Assembly (NCBI RefSeq): GCF_013315695.1
Contig: NZ_CP054353.1
Origin: Escherichia coli
Lineage (GTDB): Bacteria > Pseudomonadota > Gammaproteobacteria > Enterobacterales > Enterobacteriaceae
Length of the DNA: 64,000 nt
Reading direction: 5' to 3' (one strand)
This document shows positions 3,480 through 64,000 of the stretch, one piece after another (position 1 is the first letter of the stretch; the number at the start of each line of letters is the position of its first letter). A program made the translations under genes and the position numbers. The notes under the pieces are model-generated. The model did no database searches and was not told where the DNA came from. It worked only from the letters and a program-made list of their open reading frames with translations.

Positions 3480-3582
3480 CGTGCTACGCCTGTCAGGCCT
3501 ATTCGACTCATGCAATATATTGAATTTGCATAGTTTTGTGGGGCGAATAAGGCGTTCACGCCGCATCCGGCGTGAACAAAGT
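3480..3582. repeat. REP/BIME-type extragenic palindromes
   Basis: aggcgttcacgccgcatccggcgtgaac is the classic REP consensus core. A second imperfect palindrome, gcctgtcaggcct, lies upstream. Confidence 0.6.
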
Positions 3583-3616: not shown

Positions 3617-4444
3617 TTACTTCTTCCAGAAATCATCGAAAACGGTAATTGGCGGACGGCGTTTATGTTCAGTTTTCAGATACCAGTTCTCTATTGTTCT
3701 GGCGACCTGTTCAGGTACGTTTTTCCCTTCCAGATAGTCGTCGATATTGTCATAGGTCACGCCGAGTGCCACTTCATCTGGTAGAGAAGGGCGATCATCT
3801 TCCAGATCGGCCGTTGGCGCTTTCTTATAAAGGTGTTCCGGGCAACCTAATGCCGCCAGTAACTGTTTACCCTGACGTTTGTTAAGACGATACAGTGGAT
3901 TAATGTCCGTACCGCCGTCACCATATTTAGTGAAGAATCCGGTAATGGCTTCTGCTGCATGATCGGTGCCCACCACGACACCGCTGGTCATACCCGCAAT
4001 GCTATATTGTGCTTTCATCCGCTCACGCGCTTTTTCATTGCCACGGACAAAATCGCTCAGTTCAATGCCTGCTTCCCGCAATGCCTGCTCGCTGGCCAAT
4101 ACCGCGCCCTTGATATTAACGGTTAATACGCGATCCGGTTGAATAAAGGCAATGGCATCCTGGCAATCTTGTTCGTCAGCCTGAACACCATAGGGCAGGC
4201 GTACGGCAATAAATTGCAGTGATTCGTTGCCAGTTTCCTGGCGCAGCTCATTAATCGCCATCTGGCACAGCTTTCCGGCAAGCGTGGAGTCCTGACCGCC
4301 GCTGATCCCGAGCACCAGTGATTTAATGAACGGATAAGTTTGCAGGTAGCTTTTCAGAAAATCGACACTACGACGAATTTCCTCTTCAGCATTAATCTGC
4401 GGTTTTGCGCCCAGCGCCTTTATTATTTGTTGTTGCAATGTCAT
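3617..4444 (-). CDS. nadE: NH3-dependent NAD+ synthetase
   Basis: 275 aa. SGGQDS PP-loop motif ([13 protein letters not shown]). K-12 length and position. Confidence 0.95.
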
Positions 4445-4645
4445 TGAACCCCTCCAGACAGAAAAGACAAAACTTCCTTAAAGCTAACCCGTTGCTACTG
4501 AAACGACAAGCGACAGCGGGCTGAATGGTGGTTAAAACGTCATACAGGAATCCTCTGAAAGCGGAGCCGTTTCGTTCACGGGCTTGAAAAAGCGCCCAAT
4601 GTATTCCAGGCTTATCTAACACGCTGATAAACAAGAGGACGGAAT

Positions 4646-27330: not shown

Positions 27331-27414
27331 TCAACGCCATCAAAACATTGACTTTTATCGCCGTAGCCTTTTCAATAAAGGTCTTTTGAAAAGTACCAAA
27401 AGGTAACGCAAGCA

Positions 27415-27459
27415 ATGAATGCTGCTATTTTCCGCTTCTTTTTTTACTTTAGCACCTGA
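27415..27459 (+). CDS. pheM: pheST leader peptide (14 aa, Phe-rich)
   Basis: atg aat gct gct att ttc cgc ttc ttt ttt tac ttt agc acc tga translates to [14 protein letters not shown]. Below the track cutoff. Confidence 0.85.
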
Positions 27460-27505
27460 CTCCAGGAGGCTAGCGCGTGAGAAGAGAAACGGAAAACAGC
27501 GCCTG

Positions 27506-27531
27506 AAAGCCTCCCAGTGGAGGCTTTTTTT
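27506..27531 (+). terminator. pheST attenuator terminator
   Basis: aaagcctcccagtggaggcttt hairpin plus T-run, between pheM and pheS. Confidence 0.75.
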
Positions 27532-27555
27532 GTATGCGCGTTTTGAAAAAATTAA

Positions 27556-30987: not shown

Positions 30988-31287
30988 ATGGCGCTTACAA
31001 AAGCTGAAATGTCAGAATATCTGTTTGATAAGCTTGGGCTTAGCAAGCGGGATGCCAAAGAACTGGTTGAACTGTTTTTCGAAGAGATCCGTCGCGCTCT
31101 GGAAAACGGCGAACAGGTGAAACTCTCTGGTTTTGGTAACTTCGATCTGCGTGATAAGAATCAACGCCCGGGACGTAACCCGAAAACGGGCGAGGATATT
31201 CCCATTACAGCACGGCGCGTGGTGACCTTCAGACCCGGGCAGAAGTTAAAAAGCCGGGTCGAAAACGCTTCGCCCAAAGACGAGTAA
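30988..31287 (+). CDS. ihfA: integration host factor alpha
   Basis: 99 aa, [35 protein letters not shown]. Confidence 0.97.
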
Positions 31288-31300
31288 TCTGATCTAACTA

Positions 31301-31327
31301 AAAAGGCCGCTCTGCGGCCTTTTTTCT
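31301..31327 (+). terminator. intrinsic terminator after ihfA
   Basis: aggccgctctgcggcct hairpin plus T6. Confidence 0.8.
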
Positions 31328-31556
31328 TTCAATAACCAATTGATTTATAATGTTTTATATCTCTTCGTTCCACGATGTGTCCACATTTAGTGGGGGGAGG
31401 GGAGTAAGCCCGCTACATTGTGGGCTTTGTCTTATAGTCTGATCACTGCTTCAAGTCGGTGAGGACACCAAAAAGAAAACCCGTAGTTTTTATGCTGCGG
31501 GTTTGTTTCATGTCTGTGAGATAGGGTGCCTTATCGACCTTACCCTGGCAACCGAT

Positions 31557-57794: not shown

Positions 57795-57908
57795 TTTACA
57801 GGATTTTTAAATCCCGTTTTTGCCTGTTTTGTGCGCACTTCATATATCGCGGCACGTTTTTTGCTCATTTACGGGATTTGTGAATCCCGTTTCTGTCTGT
57901 TTTTTGTT
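57795..57908 (-). repeat. two 39-bp direct repeats, each with an internal palindrome, upstream of parM (parC-like candidate)
   Basis: tttacaGGATTTttAAATCCcgtttttgcctgttttgtg (57795-57833) and tttacGGGATTtgtgAATCCCgtttctgtctgttttttg (57868-57906). 33/39 identical, 73-bp spacing. Confidence 0.5.
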
Positions 57909-60686
57909 TCCACTGGTCAGGCTACCCCGCAGCAGGTCTGCTTTGCGGCGGGCGCGTTCAGTGGTTTCACTGATTCTCTGTGCGTGCTCTGCGTCACGGA
58001 TGGCGTGCAGCATGTCAGAAAGCACGGTAACAGGGGTTTTCATGGTGTTCTGGTCCTGCTGAAGTGTGGATGCCAGGCGTGCGGCGGCTTCGGGGTCTGA
58101 TGCCCCCAGCTGTTCCAGATAGCTGGCGACCGGGTTATGGCGGATCTCCGTGCTGCTTACGCCGTGATTACGGCTCAGGCGCTGCCAGAGCTGCGTGATT
58201 CGGCTGTCCGGGCGGGTATCCGGTTTGCGTACAATTTCAAATCCCTGCGGTGCAATGATGCTGCCGTCAACGTACAGACTGCCGCCCCGTAACAGGTGCT
58301 GCATCTGCTGTTCACCAATATGCAGGCCGAGAGATTCAGCAGACTCCCGCCATTCTTTTGCGAGTAACTCGTGGTTATCAGGCAAAGGCTGTGGCTGTTT
58401 GCGGCTCTGTGTCCAGCTCTGCATTTCATAACTGCTGTTTTTGGCCTGTTTGTCACGCAGCGAACGCATCAGCGCCCGGCGTTCGTGCCGTTTCAGTGAG
58501 CGCATCCATTCATTCACTTCAATTTCAATGCCGTCAGGAAGCTGCGGCCACTGTGCTGGCCGTTCTTCCGGCTGTTCTGTCCCGTTGTTGTCCGTTTCCT
58601 GTACACGGGGACAGTTATTGCCACGAGTCCAAGGGGCGGCAGGGCCGCCCTGAAGGTCAAAACCATTTTCGCGGGCGCTGTCTTCCGCTTCCGGTTTGCG
58701 TCTTACCAGCTTCCAGTTATCCGGATGCGTGCATACGCGGGAAGACTCCCCAATGAGCGGCGACCAGATCCCGTAAATCTGTACGCTCTGTTCACCGTAA
58801 TCGTTCAGCTCATCTGCGAGGTCGTAGGCGGTGCGAATCAGGTAGTCTTTGCGTGGAACAAGTACGCCACCCTGTTTCTCAATGTAGGTGGCAAAACATC
58901 CGGCATCAGCGGCAGCGAGTACCGCGTCCATTGCGTCATCCTTCAGCCGTTGCGGGCCTTCCGGGTTGCGTGCCATCTGGCTGGCAAGGCGGCGCAGTTC
59001 ACGCCACACCTGACGGGAGGGGATACCAAAGAACTGGAACTGGCGGACCCGGTGAAGGCGCGCCCAGCCGATGGCGCGTTCCACGCTCTCGGCCATTGAT
59101 TTTCCGGTTTCGTGGTCAACGCGTGGCTTGCCCGTTTTCGGGTCGATGCCATCCACGGCGCGGCTGTCCAGGTTCTTTCCGATGTAGGTGGCGATGTAGC
59201 TGGTTGGTGTGCCTTTTGAGCCGTCTACGTACTCCGCCTTAAAACGCGGAGTTATGTCATCGCCCAGCTCGTGGCGGTCTTCCTGAATGGCAATATCGCA
59301 GACGTGGGACACGATGGTTTCAATCTCGTCCTGATGTGCAAAGACCATCATATGCCAGTGCACAGTGCCGTCATGGTGAGGCTCCACCGTGCGGATGCCA
59401 TACCAGCGCAGACCGTCGCGGTTCAGTTTTTTGCGGACCGCCGCAAAAAACGTGTTAACCAGGTAATCGCTGGAGTCGCGCATGGTGGCCCCGTTCCATT
59501 TGGGATTCGGATGACCGTTCTCCGTTGTTGCGTGGTATTTTGACGGGCAGGTGACAGTCAGAAACACCGCTCTGTCGCCACGGGCTTCGGCCAGAAGTTC
59601 CAGTCCCTTCATGGTGGCCATCATTTCTGCCTTACGGTGAACCGGGTTACTTACTCCCGCGTAATACACTGTCTCGAGATCAATCGTGAACCCGTCTTCG
59701 TTTTCCAGCATGAAACTTTTCAGGAAATCGCGTGTTTTCTCGCGCTGTGCGCGAAACTCGCTTAACGCGTCCTGGCTCAGATAGGGTGATGTTTTTCTGG
59801 AAACCAGACAGGCGGCGCGGAGTTGTTCTTCTCTCCACTCGCAACGTAACAGCCACAGTTTGCGTTTCCACCATTCCGCACAGGTCAGGCGAAGGATTGC
59901 GCCCGGCAGCAGCTCCGTGTCCGGTTCGTTCCTCCGGTCTTTGTCTGTTGTCAGTGCGTCATAATGTGGAGGCATGGCGTGCAGGTGTAACGCCATGCGG
60001 GCCAGCATCTGATACGCCTTCAGCGTTACATCCATGGTCAGTTCGCCATCAGTCGCACCAAAGCCATCGCAGAGTTTTTCGAAGGTGCTGCTGAACATCG
60101 CCGCCGTCATGGTGGCCAGCGTCTGTATCTGGTGTTTGTTGAGCTGCGGCAGGTAAAGCAAATCGTCCAGGCGTTCGCGTCCGGCAAGGGAGCGATAACC
60201 CGGTGTCAGCCAGCGGTGATCGGTGCGGTCCAGGCGTTCGAATATTTTGCGCAGGGTTCCGCGCGCGTAGCGTTCAGCCTGCCAGCTCTTTTTGCCTTTC
60301 TGGCGATCGGCTTCCTGTTTTTTGCGCAGGAAAGAGAGGTGGCGGCTCAGAGGTTCACGCAGATAAACGGGAAGCACCTTCAGTGTGGCAAAAGCACGGG
60401 CCACCGGGTCTTGTTCTGTTGCCTGACGCTTGCTGATGATGCTTTGTGCCAGCTTTTCACGCTGTCCGGCTTCCTCAAGGGATGCCATGAGTTTTTTACC
60501 CACGGTGGATTGTGCGAAAAAGGCTTCCTCCTTCGCTTCCTGTTCTTCCAGAGCCTTTTTGTCTGCCTCAAGGTAGTAACGGATGGCGCGTTGTAGGTCG
60601 GTTTCAGTTTCCTGCCTGTGCTCCGTAAATCTGGCCGGATCAATGGCTGGCCGTGGTTCATTCCAGCTCCATGCAAACTCACTCAT
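57840..60686 (-). CDS. gpA-like HUH rolling-circle replication initiator endonuclease (about 948 aa)
   Basis: HUH motif TVHWHMMVF and paired tyrosines TSYIATYIGKN as in P2 A. The start at MSEFAWSW gives an ATGA overlap with the upstream ORF stop. The track's upstream ATG at 60713 is not excluded. Confidence 0.85.
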   Translation of the reverse strand: MSEFAWSWNEPRPAIDPARFTEHRQETETDLQRAIRYYLEADKKALEEQEAKEEAFFAQSTVGKKLMASLEEAGQREKLAQSIISKRQATEQDPVARAFATLKVLPVYLREPLSRHLSFLRKKQEADRQKGKKSWQAERYARGTLRKIFERLDRTDHRWLTPGYRSLAGRERLDDLLYLPQLNKHQIQTLATMTAAMFSSTFEKLCDGFGATDGELTMDVTLKAYQMLARMALHLHAMPPHYDALTTDKDRRNEPDTELLPGAILRLTCAEWWKRKLWLLRCEWREEQLRAACLVSRKTSPYLSQDALSEFRAQREKTRDFLKSFMLENEDGFTIDLETVYYAGVSNPVHRKAEMMATMKGLELLAEARGDRAVFLTVTCPSKYHATTENGHPNPKWNGATMRDSSDYLVNTFFAAVRKKLNRDGLRWYGIRTVEPHHDGTVHWHMMVFAHQDEIETIVSHVCDIAIQEDRHELGDDITPRFKAEYVDGSKGTPTSYIATYIGKNLDSRAVDGIDPKTGKPRVDHETGKSMAESVERAIGWARLHRVRQFQFFGIPSRQVWRELRRLASQMARNPEGPQRLKDDAMDAVLAAADAGCFATYIEKQGGVLVPRKDYLIRTAYDLADELNDYGEQSVQIYGIWSPLIGESSRVCTHPDNWKLVRRKPEAEDSARENGFDLQGGPAAPWTRGNNCPRVQETDNNGTEQPEERPAQWPQLPDGIEIEVNEWMRSLKRHERRALMRSLRDKQAKNSSYEMQSWTQSRKQPQPLPDNHELLAKEWRESAESLGLHIGEQQMQHLLRGGSLYVDGSIIAPQGFEIVRKPDTRPDSRITQLWQRLSRNHGVSSTEIRHNPVASYLEQLGASDPEAAARLASTLQQDQNTMKTPVTVLSDMLHAIRDAEHAQRISETTERARRKADLLRGSLTSGNKKQTETGFTNPVNEQKTCRDI

Positions 60687-61072
60687 GGCTGGTATCCCGT
60701 CACGCGCTGCCACTCCTGCGAGAAGAGGGCAGAAAGGCGGTTAAATTCAGCGGTGTATTCACTCAGCGAGGCACACCCGCCAGCAGTGCGATGCGCCAGC
60801 ATTGCCGCAAATACGGAGGCCGGGGAGTCGTAATACGCCAGCAGTGATTCTCCGTGTGGTGTCAGGCAATGCAACGCCAGCCCGTGTGGTGTGAAGTCCA
60901 CGCGGTAGCAGTCGTCTACTGTGAAATAAAGGGTGTCTGCATTTTCCGGTTTTGTGGTGCGTGCTCTGTTGTCACGACCACGGATGTAGAGATCAAATAA
61001 TCCCTGAAGAACGGGAGCCAGACGGGTGTCCTGTGTGCGCACCCATCTTGTGAAGTCATGAGCGTCAATCAT
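60683..61072 (-). CDS. hypothetical early protein (129 aa)
   Basis: ORF translationally coupled to A. No family recognised. Confidence 0.6.
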   Translation of the reverse strand: MIDAHDFTRWVRTQDTRLAPVLQGLFDLYIRGRDNRARTTKPENADTLYFTVDDCYRVDFTPHGLALHCLTPHGESLLAYYDSPASVFAAMLAHRTAGGCASLSEYTAEFNRLSALFSQEWQRVTGYQP

Positions 61073-61144
61073 GCTGCAATTCTCTTTACTACAGATGTGC
61101 GAAGGCCTCCCGCCGCAAGGTGCAGGAAAGGCCCGGAACAGGAA

Positions 61145-61375
61145 TTAATGGAGTTTGTTTTGCTGCTGGAAGAGTTGTTGCAGCTCGCGCAGATCATCCG
61201 CCAGATAGCTGAAAACAGAGGCGGAATAGATGTTCGATAGCGCGTGGCTGCGCTCATGCAGCATATTGATGTGCATGATTTGCGCGACGCGTGATGCGCG
61301 GAAAAGTCTACGGTTGATTTCAGTCTGGATGTGACGACGCGCAGCGTATGCGCGCTGTTGTTTGCGGTTTGCCAT
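61145..61375 (-). CDS. hypothetical early protein (76 aa, basic N-terminus)
   Basis: ORF in the early-operon orientation. No family recognised. Confidence 0.55.
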   Translation of the reverse strand: MANRKQQRAYAARRHIQTEINRRLFRASRVAQIMHINMLHERSHALSNIYSASVFSYLADDLRELQQLFQQQNKLH

Positions 61376-61552
61376 GGTGTGGCCTCTTTGCTCGGTGATA
61401 GAAATAGCTCACCATCCAGAGTTGAGAATCTCGGGGTGGCGAGACGTACAGGGTTCTCAACACCGGAGAGCAAAGAATCCGGCCCGACCGAAGTCGGCCC
61501 CGTACGTCCCGCCATAATTCTGACGCGAAAAAGACGTGGCAATACAGTACGC

Positions 61553-61575
61553 ACAAAAAAACCGCTGGCGCGGTT
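61553..61575 (-). terminator. intrinsic terminator within the early operon (minus polarity)
   Basis: The minus strand reads aaccgc-gcca-gcggtt followed by T7-8. Confidence 0.6.
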
Positions 61576-61647
61576 ATGCGCTTTGCTCTGTATCGGGTTG
61601 AGAATCCCGGCACCCGTTTTATGAGGTGCAGCGGAAATGTAACCTGA

Positions 61648-61676
61648 CCGATTGCGGCATGGCAAGCGGTTTTTTT
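61648..61676 (+). terminator. intrinsic terminator of plus polarity (antisense to the early operon)
   Basis: ccgattgc-ggcatg-gcaagcgg (one mismatch) followed by T7. Confidence 0.55.
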
Positions 61677-61697
61677 GTGTGTGCATGTTCTGGTTTC

Positions 61698-61997
61698 TTA
61701 CTGGTTCAGAAAAAAATCAAAAACCTTGTCAATGCGTTGCAGCAGCTCTTGCTGTATTGCTTCCGGCGTTTCCGGTTCGCCGGGTGCCTCCAACGTCGCG
61801 CAGAAATCAGCGATTTCATGATGGAGTGTCAGGCGAATGGCAGGAGCCGTGGTTCTGGCGTGCTCCAGCTGATCCAGCAGTGCCAGCACAGCAGACGGCG
61901 AGAGCATTGCGCGAAATGCCAGTAATTTTTGAGGCGTTGCCATTCGTTGCAGGGCAAATGCCAGTTCGCGTAGCTTCTGGTGGTTGATGGTGCTCAT
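61698..61997 (-). CDS. hypothetical early protein (99 aa), faint Ead/Ea22-like resemblance
   Basis: ..LRELA....ATP...LA......VLALLDQLE.. pattern. Low confidence in the family. Confidence 0.6.
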   Translation of the reverse strand: MSTINHQKLRELAFALQRMATPQKLLAFRAMLSPSAVLALLDQLEHARTTAPAIRLTLHHEIADFCATLEAPGEPETPEAIQQELLQRIDKVFDFFLNQ

Positions 61998-62260
61998 GTT
62001 CTGGCTTCCTTCAGTAGCTGGTTAAACATGTGAGTAAGTGGATTGCTACACCCGAACGGCATCGGGTTTACGTGGTAAGAAGCCTGGCCTCCAGTTTTGC
62101 GAGCGCGACCACCTGTGCTGCGGTTTGTTCTGATGACTAAGCCGCCGCGCCAAAGTTGGCGTAACTCAGCATTAATGGCTGTGGTTGGAGTATTCAGTGC
62201 TGCGGCGATCTCTCCGCCGCTACAACCCGGATGAGTAGCGATGTAGTCCAGAATGGTCAT
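61994..62260 (-). CDS. small winged-helix DNA-binding protein (88 aa)
   Basis: MTILDYIATHPGCSGGEIAAALNTPTTAINAELRQLWRGGLVIR is a wHTH-like layout. Coupled overlaps with both neighbours. Confidence 0.6.
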   Translation of the reverse strand: MTILDYIATHPGCSGGEIAAALNTPTTAINAELRQLWRGGLVIRTNRSTGGRARKTGGQASYHVNPMPFGCSNPLTHMFNQLLKEART

Positions 62261-62460
62261 CTGCGTGGCTCCTGTACCTGTCGGATAAGATTCACCCGCG
62301 CCACGTTGGTGGCGCAGAAGTAAGTGCCGTCAGTGAGGTAGATGTGGTGTGCATCCTTTTCCGAACGATGTTTGTCGATAGTGGTAATCAGGCGTTCGTC
62401 GACCTCGTATTCGCGCCCTCTGGAGGTAAAGCGAACGACGGGAAAATGCTTAATTGCCAT
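62257..62460 (-). CDS. hypothetical early protein (67 aa)
   Basis: ORF with a 4-nt overlap to the downstream gene. Confidence 0.55.
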   Translation of the reverse strand: MAIKHFPVVRFTSRGREYEVDERLITTIDKHRSEKDAHHIYLTDGTYFCATNVARVNLIRQVQEPRR

Positions 62461-62483
62461 TGCACCCCCTTTGTCCAGTAACC

Positions 62484-62894
62484 CTATGCGTTAAATACGG
62501 TGTGTCGGGCGTCATCAATGAATGCAACTTGAGAGCGCTCTATCAGGCGGAGATTTGTCAGAAGCGCTGATTCCCTTATGGGGTGAGGAGTGATCAGGTA
62601 TTTGTTCTGTAATCCGGCGATAATGGTGTATCGCTGTGGCTCCGAGCCAATAGTGTAAATAAGGCGTCCGGTGTCAGATAAATCCAGTCCGGTGACTGGT
62701 TTAGTTTTGAGAAGCGCAAGTTCCACACCCTGTTCTTCGATGATTTTGGCAGCTTCTGCCGTGACTTTTGCGACTATCATTGTGTGGGTTGCGACGTCCA
62801 TGTGAGCATTGGCCACGGCTTTTTTCGCTACTTCGCTTTCCATCTTTGAAATTTCTTTCAGTGCTCTGATGATACCTTCTTCTTTTGCGTGCAT
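62484..62894 (-). CDS. hypothetical early protein (136 aa)
   Basis: ORF with acggagatacaaaaATG as RBS. Confidence 0.6.
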   Translation of the reverse strand: MHAKEEGIIRALKEISKMESEVAKKAVANAHMDVATHTMIVAKVTAEAAKIIEEQGVELALLKTKPVTGLDLSDTGRLIYTIGSEPQRYTIIAGLQNKYLITPHPIRESALLTNLRLIERSQVAFIDDARHTVFNA

Positions 62895-62987
62895 TTTTGT
62901 ATCTCCGTTATTTGCGTGTGCGAATACCTCCGTTAATACGGATGGTTTTCACGTTTTCTTATTTAATTTGATGTTTTATTTGTATCG

Positions 62988-63101
62988 TTATTCATCAGAG
63001 AAAAAACGCTCGATCTTTTTCACTGAATTAATAATTCGCATAATCCCAATGGCGCAGGCCACCGAAATAATCAGAACAAGCCATGAGATAAATATACTCA
63101 T
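62988..63101 (-). CDS. 37-aa single-TM peptide
   Basis: MSIFISWLVLIISVACAIGIMRIINSVKKIERFFSDE. The ATG overlaps the TGA of the upstream 80-aa ORF (ATGA). Below the track cutoff. Confidence 0.4.
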   Translation of the reverse strand: MSIFISWLVLIISVACAIGIMRIINSVKKIERFFSDE

Positions 63102-63340
63102 GCGATATTCCCCAGCTTATACGGTTCAATATGTTCTCCGCATTCTGCGGCACAGATCAGCTCGGAAAGTTCGTTAAGTGCATCCAGATCATCAGCGTAA
63201 AAAGCCACGTCATACAGACTCCGGATTGCCCTGGTCAATGAGTCACGGGCTGCACGTTCAGCATGAACGCCTGATGCACTTAAGCGAAAATAAAAACGCT
63301 CAAGTGCTTTGTTGATGAGTGTTTTATATTCTTTGTCCAT
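63098..63340 (-). CDS. hypothetical early protein (80 aa)
   Basis: ORF in the operon orientation. Confidence 0.55.
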   Translation of the reverse strand: MDKEYKTLINKALERFYFRLSASGVHAERAARDSLTRAIRSLYDVAFYADDLDALNELSELICAAECGEHIEPYKLGNIA

Positions 63341-63351
63341 TGCAACACCCT

Positions 63352-63639
63352 TTAATCTGCTTTCTGTATTTCAGCTTCTGAATCCATACAAATAATTTCG
63401 ATATAGGGTTCATCGCCATTAACTTGGCGTGCCTTTTCAGCTTCGCTAATGATTTCTCGTACGGTCTGGTACGGAAGTTCCACAAGCAGTCGCGTGCCGT
63501 TCAGATAGACGTAAGTGGCTTCGTCGGCTCCGTTTTTACCCGCCGGAGTCACTCCGTCAATAGCGGATGCACGTAATAACAGTTCACCGCGAAAATCAAT
63601 AAAACGGATAAATACACCTTGTGCATGGTCTTTGGTCAT
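63352..63639 (-). CDS. hypothetical early protein (95 aa from internal Met MTKDHAQG)
   Basis: Track ORF 63352..63753. The upstream part overlaps the preceding ORF, so the internal start is preferred. Confidence 0.5.
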   Translation of the reverse strand: MTKDHAQGVFIRFIDFRGELLLRASAIDGVTPAGKNGADEATYVYLNGTRLLVELPYQTVREIISEAEKARQVNGDEPYIEIICMDSEAEIQKAD

Positions 63640-63649
63640 AAAGCACCCG

Positions 63650-63988
63650 TTATAAATCAGCCTGTTTAATAAAACTTTGCCCGCGAAGCAGACGATCAAC
63701 CGTGCGAAGTGCTTCGTATAATGTGAAATCCTGCCCGAACTGATTGTCGCCACAGCTCAATGCAAAAATGCGGTTTCCGGTAAACGGATTGCGTGGGCAT
63801 TTGTGGATCACGATTCCAGCTTTCTCAATCAGCCAGGCGTGCTCGCCGATTTGTTTTACTGGGTAGCCATCCGGCGTTGCGTGTGTATCACTCAGGCTGT
63901 AGCGGATGTTGCTGCGTGATGCACTGGTAGTGAAACGGTTAGCGTGGCGTTCTGTTCCGGTACGAAAATTACGGCGTTGCTTCAGCAT
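63650..63988 (-). CDS. hypothetical early protein (112 aa)
   Basis: ORF in the operon orientation, near the window edge. Confidence 0.5.
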   Translation of the reverse strand: MLKQRRNFRTGTERHANRFTTSASRSNIRYSLSDTHATPDGYPVKQIGEHAWLIEKAGIVIHKCPRNPFTGNRIFALSCGDNQFGQDFTLYEALRTVDRLLRGQSFIKQADL

Positions 63989-64000
63989 AAAATGACACCT

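Follow-up and report, generated by a model that had tools for sequence, protein, structure and literature searches.

What is the function of the 322-bp non-coding gap that separates two minus-strand genes, of 99 and 76 amino acids (aa), in the prophage part of the 64-kb Escherichia coli stretch that we have analysed (hereafter, the window)? A first reading of this DNA, made without database searches (the sequence-only reading), had described the gap as a structured regulatory locus placed before the 76-aa gene, the 129-aa gene and replication gene A, and had left three possibilities side by side: a transcription attenuator or antitermination target, a cis-antisense RNA, or a binding array for the adjacent winged helix-turn-helix (wHTH) protein. 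Here, we report that the gap is an already known tandem pair of phage regulatory RNAs, i.e. an IsrK/c4-a1b1 RNA followed by a c4 antisense RNA. Judging from its sequence matches, the prophage around this cassette is P88-like, of the P2 family (Peduoviridae, Xuanwuvirus): the whole region matches P88-like Xuanwuvirus phages, with 87–93% identity over 1.3 kb in the region of the gap, and its replication protein is gpA, not alpha.

The Rfam scan that the sequence-only reading had suggested, conducted over positions 60000–64000 and further over the whole window, identifies both RNAs. The isrK model (RF01394, isrK Hfq-binding RNA) is matched along its full length (model positions 1–77 of 77) with 62.8 bits against a gathering threshold of 50 (E = 2.9e-12), and the C4 model (RF01695) is also matched from end to end (model positions 1–87 of 87), with 79.1 bits against a threshold of 45 (E = 4.8e-15); these are the only copies of the two families in the window, where the c4-a1b1 model (RF03163) gives no separate match. 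The IsrK-like RNA is laid out as two 5' hairpins, a single-stranded linker and an intrinsic terminator, and folds with -30.4 kcal/mol (z = -2.84). It is located 35 nt upstream of the c4 RNA, in which a 17-bp closing stem surrounds a UUCG hairpin and a second hairpin; the c4 fold (-48.2 kcal/mol, z = -4.97) is equalled by none of 200 shuffles, and its minimum free energy (MFE) structure reproduces that of the family. The same c4 structure is returned by RNAalifold for 21 diverse homologs, including those of P1, P4 and N15, with compensatory changes at 15 of the 27 pairs. The structured regulatory RNA locus of the first reading is therefore borne out by Rfam matches, folds and covariation, and two of its details find their place in the c4 RNA: the GC-rich hairpin with the cgaa loop (61484–61497) corresponds to hairpin 1 of c4, whose tetraloop reads UUCG in the RNA, and the 7-bp pairing gacgtac/gtacgtc is part of the closing stem, which a repeat finder recovers as a 17-bp inverted repeat (61437–61453 / 61498–61514), along with short complementarities between the boxes that are described below.

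Table. Features of the cassette and of the genes that follow it, in window coordinates and in the order of the minus-strand RNA.
Feature	Positions	Strand	Description
Non-coding gap	61376-61697		322 bp, between the 99-aa gene (61997..61698, -) and the 76-aa gene (61375..61145, -)
Predicted PisrK promoter	61636..61676	-	Promoter scan
IsrK-like / c4-a1b1 RNA	61555..61629	-	Rfam RF01394
a1 box	61597..61606	-	RNA GAUUCUCAAC, loop of IsrK hairpin 2; complementary to c4 a'
b1 box	61581..61589	-	RNA AGAGCAAAG, IsrK linker; 9 bp with c4 b'
IsrK intrinsic terminator	61553..61575	-	AACCGC-GCCA-GCGGUU, then U7; terminator scan
IsrK terminator-c4 spacer	61520..61554	-	35 nt, part of the read-through precursor
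c4-type antisense RNA	61432..61519	-	Rfam RF01695; equivalent of P1/P7 c4 and P4 CI RNA
b' loop	61467..61478	-	RNA AUUCUUUGCUCU, 12-nt loop of c4 hairpin 2; core CUUUGCUCU
a' box	61452..61461	-	RNA GUUGAGAACC (core GUUGAGAA), single-stranded junction 3' of c4 hairpin 2
a2 target box	61421..61430	-	RNA GAUUCUCAAC, begins 2 nt after c4; position of the annotated P1 a2
b2 target box	61383..61393	-	RNA GAGCAAAGA, 61393-61385
76-aa gene	61145..61375	-	First gene after the cassette; P4 epsilon homolog
129-aa gene	61072..60683	-	After the 76-aa gene; function unassigned
Replication endonuclease gpA	60713..57840 (as listed for the open reading frame)	-	PF05840 Phage_GPA, 430 bits

On the RNA strand, the elements follow one another in the order promoter, IsrK (with a1 and b1), terminator, spacer, c4 (with b' and a'), a2, a small hairpin, b2 and the ATG of the 76-aa gene. 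The repeated motifs CTTTGCTC and GTTGAGAA represent the specificity boxes of c4, b' and a', respectively, and all the motif copies and complements that the first reading had pointed out are in place and function as boxes of the c4 system: GTTGAGAATC occurs at 61421 and 61597, with an inverted copy that has one mismatch at 61452–61461 (ttctcaac is exact at 61454), and CTTTGCTC has two copies, at 61386 and at 61581, and a complement at 61468; neither motif has any other match in the window. Three or more matches per motif in a window of this size are not above chance, being reached in 77 of 100 shuffles for one motif and in 54 of 100 for the other, so that the signal lies not in the window-wide count of either motif, but in the clustering of all six copies within 221 bp and in their co-variation in relatives. 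The b' loop is hypervariable between phages, but is always matched by b1 and b2; IsrK, with a1 and b1, carries copies of the target boxes, while c4 forms perfect complements of 8 bp (a') and 9 bp (b') with the targets located downstream. The box b2 overlaps with the Shine-Dalgarno sequence AAGAGG (61388–61383) of the 76-aa gene; the end of its 8-nt core CUUUGCUC (61393–61386) is separated from the ATG by 10 nt, which is precisely the distance found in P1 (b2 at 453–460, icd ATG at 471).

For the comparison across relatives, a search of contigs with the 76-aa protein returned only three close relatives, and the comparative set was therefore taken from IMG/VR, where a DNA-pattern scan with the sequence of c4 hairpin 1 gave 120 further loci; the alignment holds one representative per specificity, in total 21 types that precede an epsilon-like gene, i.e. 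a homolog of the epsilon gene of satellite P4. When the corresponding segments from the phages are set side by side, the loops differ, and a1/b1 and a2/b2 always change along with them. The scaffold of the 21 types is nearly invariant (89% mean identity), with the variation being confined to the six boxes. Aligned cells between c4 and a2/b2 are paired in 95.5% of cases (67.7% after shuffling), with 89 double-change cells against 26.7 expected, and those between c4 and a1/b1 in 96.1% (67.5% after shuffling), with 91 double-change cells against 26.4 expected; in both comparisons, none of the 500 shuffles is as good, and slid controls are paired to 26–54%. The helix between b' and b1 is fully paired in the 21 types, with changes on both sides at 7 of 9 pairs, the helix between b' and b2 is paired to 98.9%, with changes on both sides at 6 of 9 pairs, and a1 and a2 each co-vary with a'.

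The repertoire of these boxes is large: the 121 parsed modules fall into 28 loop combinations, and among the 114 modules from IMG/VR, 21 b' alleles and 11 a' alleles reassort. Each c4 is complementary to its own four targets over 8.4, 9.0, 7.2 and 7.25 contiguous nt on average, as opposed to about 4.6–5.0 nt for targets that are not its own; the mean duplex energy is -24.6 kcal/mol for cognate and -12.4 kcal/mol for non-cognate combinations, and the own target is the best one in 19 of the 21 types. The loop alleles are thus highly diverse and orthogonal in silico, and a set of this size, co-varying and reassorting, offers a clean natural example of orthogonal RNA–RNA recognition. Five pairs of prophages that share a genome all differ in specificity, a comparison devoid of statistical power, given that identity was expected in only 8% of cases.

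The covariation analysis in related prophages, which had been suggested along with the Rfam scan, shows that boxes and pairings vary together, and it also tells on which molecule they act: the one-sided changes are all of the G-U type, indicating the pairing of a minus-strand RNA and not the identity of DNA repeats. The idea that the 88-aa wHTH (MarR-like) protein encoded nearby binds these motifs as its DNA operators, to which the direct and inverted copies close to the wHTH gene had lent some appeal, is rejected: one identical wHTH sequence accompanies seven motif specificities and another accompanies six; the inverted copies sit in a loop and a junction of an RNA that is supported by covariation; an RNA helix tolerates changes of the G-U type, which the identity of DNA repeats would not; and the same boxes are found in lambdoid phages, P1, P4 and N15, where this wHTH gene is missing.

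At the 5' side of IsrK, the predicted PisrK promoter is sigma-70-like, with a -35 element TTGCCA (61665–61660), an 18-nt spacer and a -10 element TACATT (61641–61636), and its predicted +1 coincides with the 5' end of the Rfam isrK match at 61629. The two hexamers are invariant or nearly so in the 21 relatives, the sequence of the spacer varies while its length is constant, and the annotated P1 promoters occupy the equivalent position. An A7 tract (61676–61670) is located at about -46 to -40 of the predicted promoter, which is where a proximal UP subsite is placed. At the 3' side, the minus-polarity terminator of the first reading is recovered by the terminator scan as the terminator of IsrK, i.e. 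the terminal hairpin of the isrK model, which is invariant in relatives; b1 lies only 5 nt upstream of its stem. The spacer that follows is nearly invariant among Xuanwuvirus-type relatives, and measures 24–25 nt in lambdoid phages, N15 and P1 and 107 nt in P4.

The first reading had also placed a plus-polarity terminator at 61648–61676 and had taken it as a sign of an antisense transcript. The plus strand does allow a hairpin with a T7 run after it to be drawn, but the segment 61646–61676 folds no better than shuffled sequences (-11.4 kcal/mol, z = +0.07, a fold matched by 103 of 200 shuffles), relatives L003 and L004 have lost the outer stem, and a different, weak hairpin takes its place in spacers of the L024 type. 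The T-run is the complement of the A-tract of predicted PisrK and the stem includes the -35 hexamer; no plus-strand promoter was found in positions 60600–62600, and both RNAs lie on the minus strand, the same as the operon, which is also the only strand that the G-U pairs fit. We consider a plus-strand antisense RNA that runs across IsrK and stops at this site to be very improbable. Thus, seven of the eight features that had been listed from the sequence are present and meaningful, while for the eighth, the plus-strand terminator, a functional role is not confirmed.

Some further observations concern the same segment. A 21-nt inverted repeat (61549–61569 / 61662–61682, ACGCACAAAAAAACCGCTGGC / GCAAGCGGTTTTTTTGTGTGT), 90% complementary, brackets the promoter–IsrK–terminator unit, and the 3' half of the IsrK terminator with its T-run is mirrored upstream of the -35 element of PisrK; the repeat could be a relic of how this unit was acquired. 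A second promoter-like site (TTGCCA-17-AATTAT, 61542..61514) has been treated as chance, because its -10 element is the conserved 5' leader of c4 (AAUUAUGG), with the start falling inside the c4 stem, and because its -35 element is missing in the lambdoid, P1 and N15 homologs; a weak match of CRISPR-DR33 to the IsrK terminator (21.7 bits against 39, E = 0.28) is also regarded as chance.

The absence of a credible open reading frame (ORF) in the gap, as noted in the first reading, also stands up to comparison. A protein-coding interval could take the form of an 'Ash family' protein, from the 205-aa ORF at 61686..61069, or of a shorter ORF that starts at the AUG of c4. The conceptual 205-aa ORF, which runs across the island, weakly matches Pfam PF10554 Phage_ASH (19.3 bits, E = 0.0016), a product 'similar to ash family protein' is placed by the annotation pipeline PGAP at the same location in a P88-like record, the c4-AUG frame is open in 20 of the 21 types, and the homologous 'orf45' of Gifsy-1 has been reported to be translated (PMC4825925). 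The Phage_ASH score, however, is below the cut-off of 26, and it is the sole match of the 205-aa ORF and both 97-aa shadow ORFs in Pfam and NCBIfam; the match covers exactly the isrK–c4–a2b2 stretch, and conserved RNA genes seem to have been conceptually translated here. Simulations matched for composition yield a fully open frame in 12.9% of cases, the variation consists of paired, compensatory changes of the boxes and not of third-codon changes, indels shift the frame in relatives L005, L020 and L059 and stops occur in L050, and no Shine-Dalgarno sequence can be read before either ATG. The stop triplets of the boxes avoid the c4-AUG frame (AAUUAUGG; from 61515, minus strand), being found there in 2 alleles, against 23 and 8 alleles for the other two frames; these counts trace to few shared features, are not statistically independent and have been rejected as an argument for coding, although the pattern is reminiscent of the translated 'orf45' of Gifsy-1. 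Taken together, we regard a protein product as the reason for this interval as quite improbable.

The ash label is seen elsewhere on the same kind of stretch: the match to isrK–c4–a2b2 runs over 61354–61641 (minus strand) in the window, the old 'cI' ORF of P4 scores 59.7 bits, and the label overlaps in the same manner in L002 (4374–4634) and in P4 (L006, 8168–8584).

We consider it probable, at roughly 85%, that the island is an RNA cassette of the P1-immI / P4-immunity type, which is transcribed from the minus strand and gates the epsilon-like gene. Transcription would start from the predicted promoter (61665–61636) at about 61629, and most transcripts would end at the IsrK terminator, giving an IsrK-like RNA of about 75 nt that displays a1 and b1, while read-through transcripts, and those from an upstream early promoter, would carry the c4 element. 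The c4 RNA of P1 and P7 and the CI RNA of P4 are released from a longer precursor by RNase P, and here too, c4 would be cut from its precursor as a stable small RNA, as in these phages. Its exposed boxes b' (CUUUGCUCU) and a' (GUUGAGAA) would then pair with b2 and a2 just downstream, covering part of the Shine-Dalgarno sequence of the 76-aa gene and blocking the translation of the epsilon-like antirepressor, while polarity or premature termination would keep the 129-aa gene and replication gene A at a low level. The a1 and b1 boxes of IsrK may offer c4 a second contact that favours termination, like seqA in P4, or may titrate c4 as a decoy and thereby turn the operon on, which has been shown for IsrK of Gifsy-1. 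The proposal of an attenuator or antitermination target was right only in a loose sense; the mechanisms described for the family are occlusion of the ribosome binding site (RBS) with polarity in P1, and RNA-induced premature termination in P4 and N15.

Several points weigh against this assignment. The first gene after the targets is not of the icd/kil or Ant/Rha type, as it is in the studied systems, and the downstream effects could differ; gpA may or may not depend on translation of the 76-aa gene, and a structured gap of 72 nt lies between the 76-aa and 129-aa genes; and the open c4-AUG frame, together with the report on 'orf45', means that a translated leader is possible.

The relative weight of translation and termination is where the known systems diverge. 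In a variant modelled on P4, c4 would mainly cause premature termination by pairing with nascent a1/b1 and a2/b2, with the polymerase being halted either by the IsrK terminator or, within the 76-aa gene, by Rho-dependent sites, and translational repression would be secondary. The leader and the CI RNA of P4 match the same isrK and C4 models and are followed by epsilon; according to the summary given in PMC4825925, the CI RNA pairs with seqA and seqC, resulting in premature termination, and the short distance between b1 and the stem of the IsrK terminator fits such an account. On the other hand, b2 overlaps the Shine-Dalgarno sequence with the 10-nt geometry of P1, whose GenBank record notes for immI 'repression of icd ant translation', and no intrinsic terminator follows a2/b2. 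We find the variant rather unlikely as the principal mode, although it does not exclude the P1-immI / P4-immunity assignment, since a block of translation can itself cause Rho-dependent termination.

A second variant would make of the cassette an inducer switch as in Gifsy-1: the c4 part would silence the RBS in cis, and IsrK, acting in trans through a1/b1, would open the mRNA, turn the antirepressor on and lead to induction of the prophage. The MFE structure of the full 281-nt transcript does pair the c4 boxes in cis with a2/b2, and the IsrK of the window passes the same Rfam model as that of Gifsy-1, where the supply of short IsrK in trans increases the translation of the antirepressor that follows by a factor of more than 100 and spontaneous induction is abolished upon deletion of PisrK (PMC4825925). 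The pairing partners mapped by mutation in Gifsy-1 differ in detail from the a/b boxes, and we regard this variant as a tentative possibility, less likely than not as the main mode of action, again compatible with, and not opposed to, the gating of the epsilon-like gene by c4.

An invariant copy of the 5' strand of the c4 stem (UUAUGGUGGG-like) is located between a2 and b2, at 61408–61417 on the minus strand (RNA GGAUGGUGAG); in the unprocessed transcript, this copy could pair with the c4 3' strand (CUCGCCACC), a possible alternative structure that may be compared with the A/B conformers of Gifsy-1.

Turning to the genes downstream, the 76-aa protein belongs to the Derepression protein family of Pfam (PF25738, 31.5 bits against a cut-off of 27) and is 33% identical to P4 epsilon over 51 aa (BLASTP, E = 4e-9); its counterpart in P88 is annotated as 'derepression protein'. 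The order of the 76-aa, 129-aa and gpA genes is the same in P88 and in Citrobacter phage Shae_phiSM, and the three probably form the same transcription unit, through which c4 would also control the 129-aa and gpA genes. The 129-aa protein shows no similarity to ORF151 of P4, which implies that the homology with P4 ends at epsilon. Across the IMG/VR set, b2 is followed first by an epsilon-like ORF in about 85 of the 121 modules, by a Rha/Ant-like one in 22, and by an Icd-like one in the P4-like modules. The 72-nt gap (61073–61144, minus strand) contains a GC-rich hairpin (GGGCCUUUCCUGCA...GCGGGAGGCC) that is not followed by a U-run; an 85-nt segment around it folds with -28 kcal/mol (z = -2.25).

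The c4 and c4-a1b1 motifs have been described before (PMC2864571) and c4 has been reviewed (PMC12197685), and the RNAs of P1/P7, P4, N15 and Gifsy-1 are all on record in these papers, in PMC4825925 and in the reference list of PMC4488713; our comparison with the studied systems is concerned with what the window shares with each of them. In the immI region of P1/P7, the RNA is of the same Rfam c4 family (68.8 bits in P1, 79.1 in the window), and the record gives the same order with near-identical spacing (promoters P1c4/P2c4, a1, b1, c4, a2, b2, icd ATG); that the loops set specificity, and that the operon under control codes for a product acting against the repressor of the prophage, would apply to the window as well. 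In contrast to P1, where icd is followed by ant1/2, the first gene in the window is the epsilon-like one; the a1/b1 element takes the terminator-bearing IsrK form, while that of P1 matches the c4-a1b1 model instead; and the cassette is located inside the early operon of a P2-like phage, before replication gene A.

The immunity region of P4 (PLE leader, seqA, CI RNA, which corresponds to seqB, and seqC) matches the isrK and C4 models in the same order (60.8 and 74.9 bits) and is also followed, on the same strand, by epsilon and a replication gene. The gene orders can be compared directly: isrK-like, C4, Icd-like ORF, epsilon, ORF151, ORF106 and alpha in P4, and isrK, C4, epsilon homolog, 129-aa gene and gpA in the window. 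P4 has a longer spacer, as given above, and an Icd-like ORF directly after seqC, so that epsilon starts about 245 nt after CI, whereas in the window the RBS of the epsilon homolog is itself the target; the 129-aa gene is unrelated to ORF151, the alpha primase-helicase is replaced by the rolling-circle endonuclease gpA, and the host element is a full P2-like phage (P88 carries the regulators C and Cox) and not a P4-like satellite.

The IsrK–orf45 (STnc1160)–anrP locus of Gifsy-1 has an IsrK with its own promoter and a leaky terminator, then a c4-like processed RNA and a gene of the antirepressor type, and according to the published mechanism, short IsrK works in trans on the transcript that results from read-through (PMC4825925). 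The window has the same IsrK family, with a predicted promoter and a terminator that would be leaky, followed by a c4 RNA that would be processed and by an antirepressor-type gene; the Gifsy-1 locus differs in being lambdoid, in the large AnrP antirepressor that is coupled to 'orf45', and in its output, the antiterminator AntQ. The immA region of N15 (small processed CA RNA, icd-antA-antB) has the same tandem (62.4 bits for isrK, 78.8 for C4), matching a/b boxes and the a' core GUUGAGAA, but N15 is a prophage in the form of a linear plasmid, with an Icd-like ORF as the first gene, and its b' allele and b2–RBS spacing differ. The kind of element is thus already known, and no new mechanism is added here; a P4-type RNA immunity and epsilon module inside a P2-like phage is a modestly new context, in which the sharing of modules between P2-like and P4-like elements bears on how helpers and satellites exchange regulatory parts, and the cassette bears on how the inducibility of P88-like prophages might be controlled.

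With regard to distribution, the Rfam models find isrK followed by C4 in P88, in a second P88-like phage, in Shae_phiSM and in Salmonella and E. albertii prophages, as well as in satellite P4, N15, ST64B and several Shiga toxin (Stx) or lambdoid phages. In P1, C4 is preceded by c4-a1b1 (51 bits against a threshold of 46.7), with isrK below threshold at 35.1 bits, while in P4 the c4-a1b1 model stays just below threshold at 44.1 bits. In the early regions of P2 and 186, neither C4 nor isrK is matched, even with the limit set at E <= 1, which makes the cassette a feature of the P88 group and not one that is general to P2-like phages. Of 5426 complete E. coli genomes, 1174 carry the 322-bp island, with 1355 copies in total and up to four per genome.

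Annotation of these loci is uneven. One GenBank record of an Stx phage already annotates both RNAs side by side; under the ten best E. coli matches listed, there is no RefSeq feature. Phage records label the stretch as hypothetical proteins or as 'ash family protein', although the two curated RNA models explain it fully. In the RefSeq record of P88, a 'hypothetical protein' (SF19_gp13, 4384–4572) lies on the opposite strand over c4 and IsrK and is probably a spurious gene call, and in lambdoid WGPS2 and ST64B, the coding sequence annotated as 'antirepressor' has been extended upstream through both RNAs. In the searchable literature, we have found no mention of the cassette in P88-like phages, where the papers on P88 and phiSM (PMC5285337, PMC6456863) do not refer to antisense RNA, epsilon or derepression, and no mention of a direct coupling of the cassette to an epsilon homolog.

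Some box alleles are common to P2-like phages, P4-like satellites, lambdoid phages and N15. They form part of a wider, and as we see it speculative and on balance unlikely, scenario: P88-like (Xuanwuvirus) prophages, which about a fifth of the complete E. coli genomes contain, would carry a second, RNA-coded layer of immunity, borrowed from or shared with P4-like satellites, in which the c4/CI RNA directly gates the epsilon-like antirepressor and the replication gene, the box alleles form a combinatorial 'barcode' and IsrK is the cognate decoy that lifts the block. If true, the ability of helpers and satellites, whether co-resident or incoming, to derepress one another would depend on the box alleles (at least 21 for b' and 11 for a', freely reassorting).

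Among individual alleles, a' UUUCCAC is common to lambdoid WGPS2, ST64B and P4-like satellites, and a' GUUGAGAA is common to N15 and to the P88-like prophage of the window, with the b' partner being different each time; partial cross-talk between elements that share box alleles is conceivable. The a' allele of the window also occurs in NZ_JBQPOM010000071.1, a contig labelled as Vagococcus sp. WN89Y (a Firmicute), on an Escherichia-type P88-like segment that has the isrK/C4 cassette and an epsilon-like protein with 93% identity; contamination or a mislabelled assembly is the likely origin.

Lastly, the whole-window scan returned three other Rfam matches above the gathering threshold, located far from the cassette: the Phe leader at 27409–27533 (plus strand, 74.4 bits), STnc540 at 31229–31373 (plus strand, 41.1 bits) and ES036/CssrF at 3495–3537 (minus strand, 38.9 bits); these point to enterobacterial chromosome in the left part of the window.

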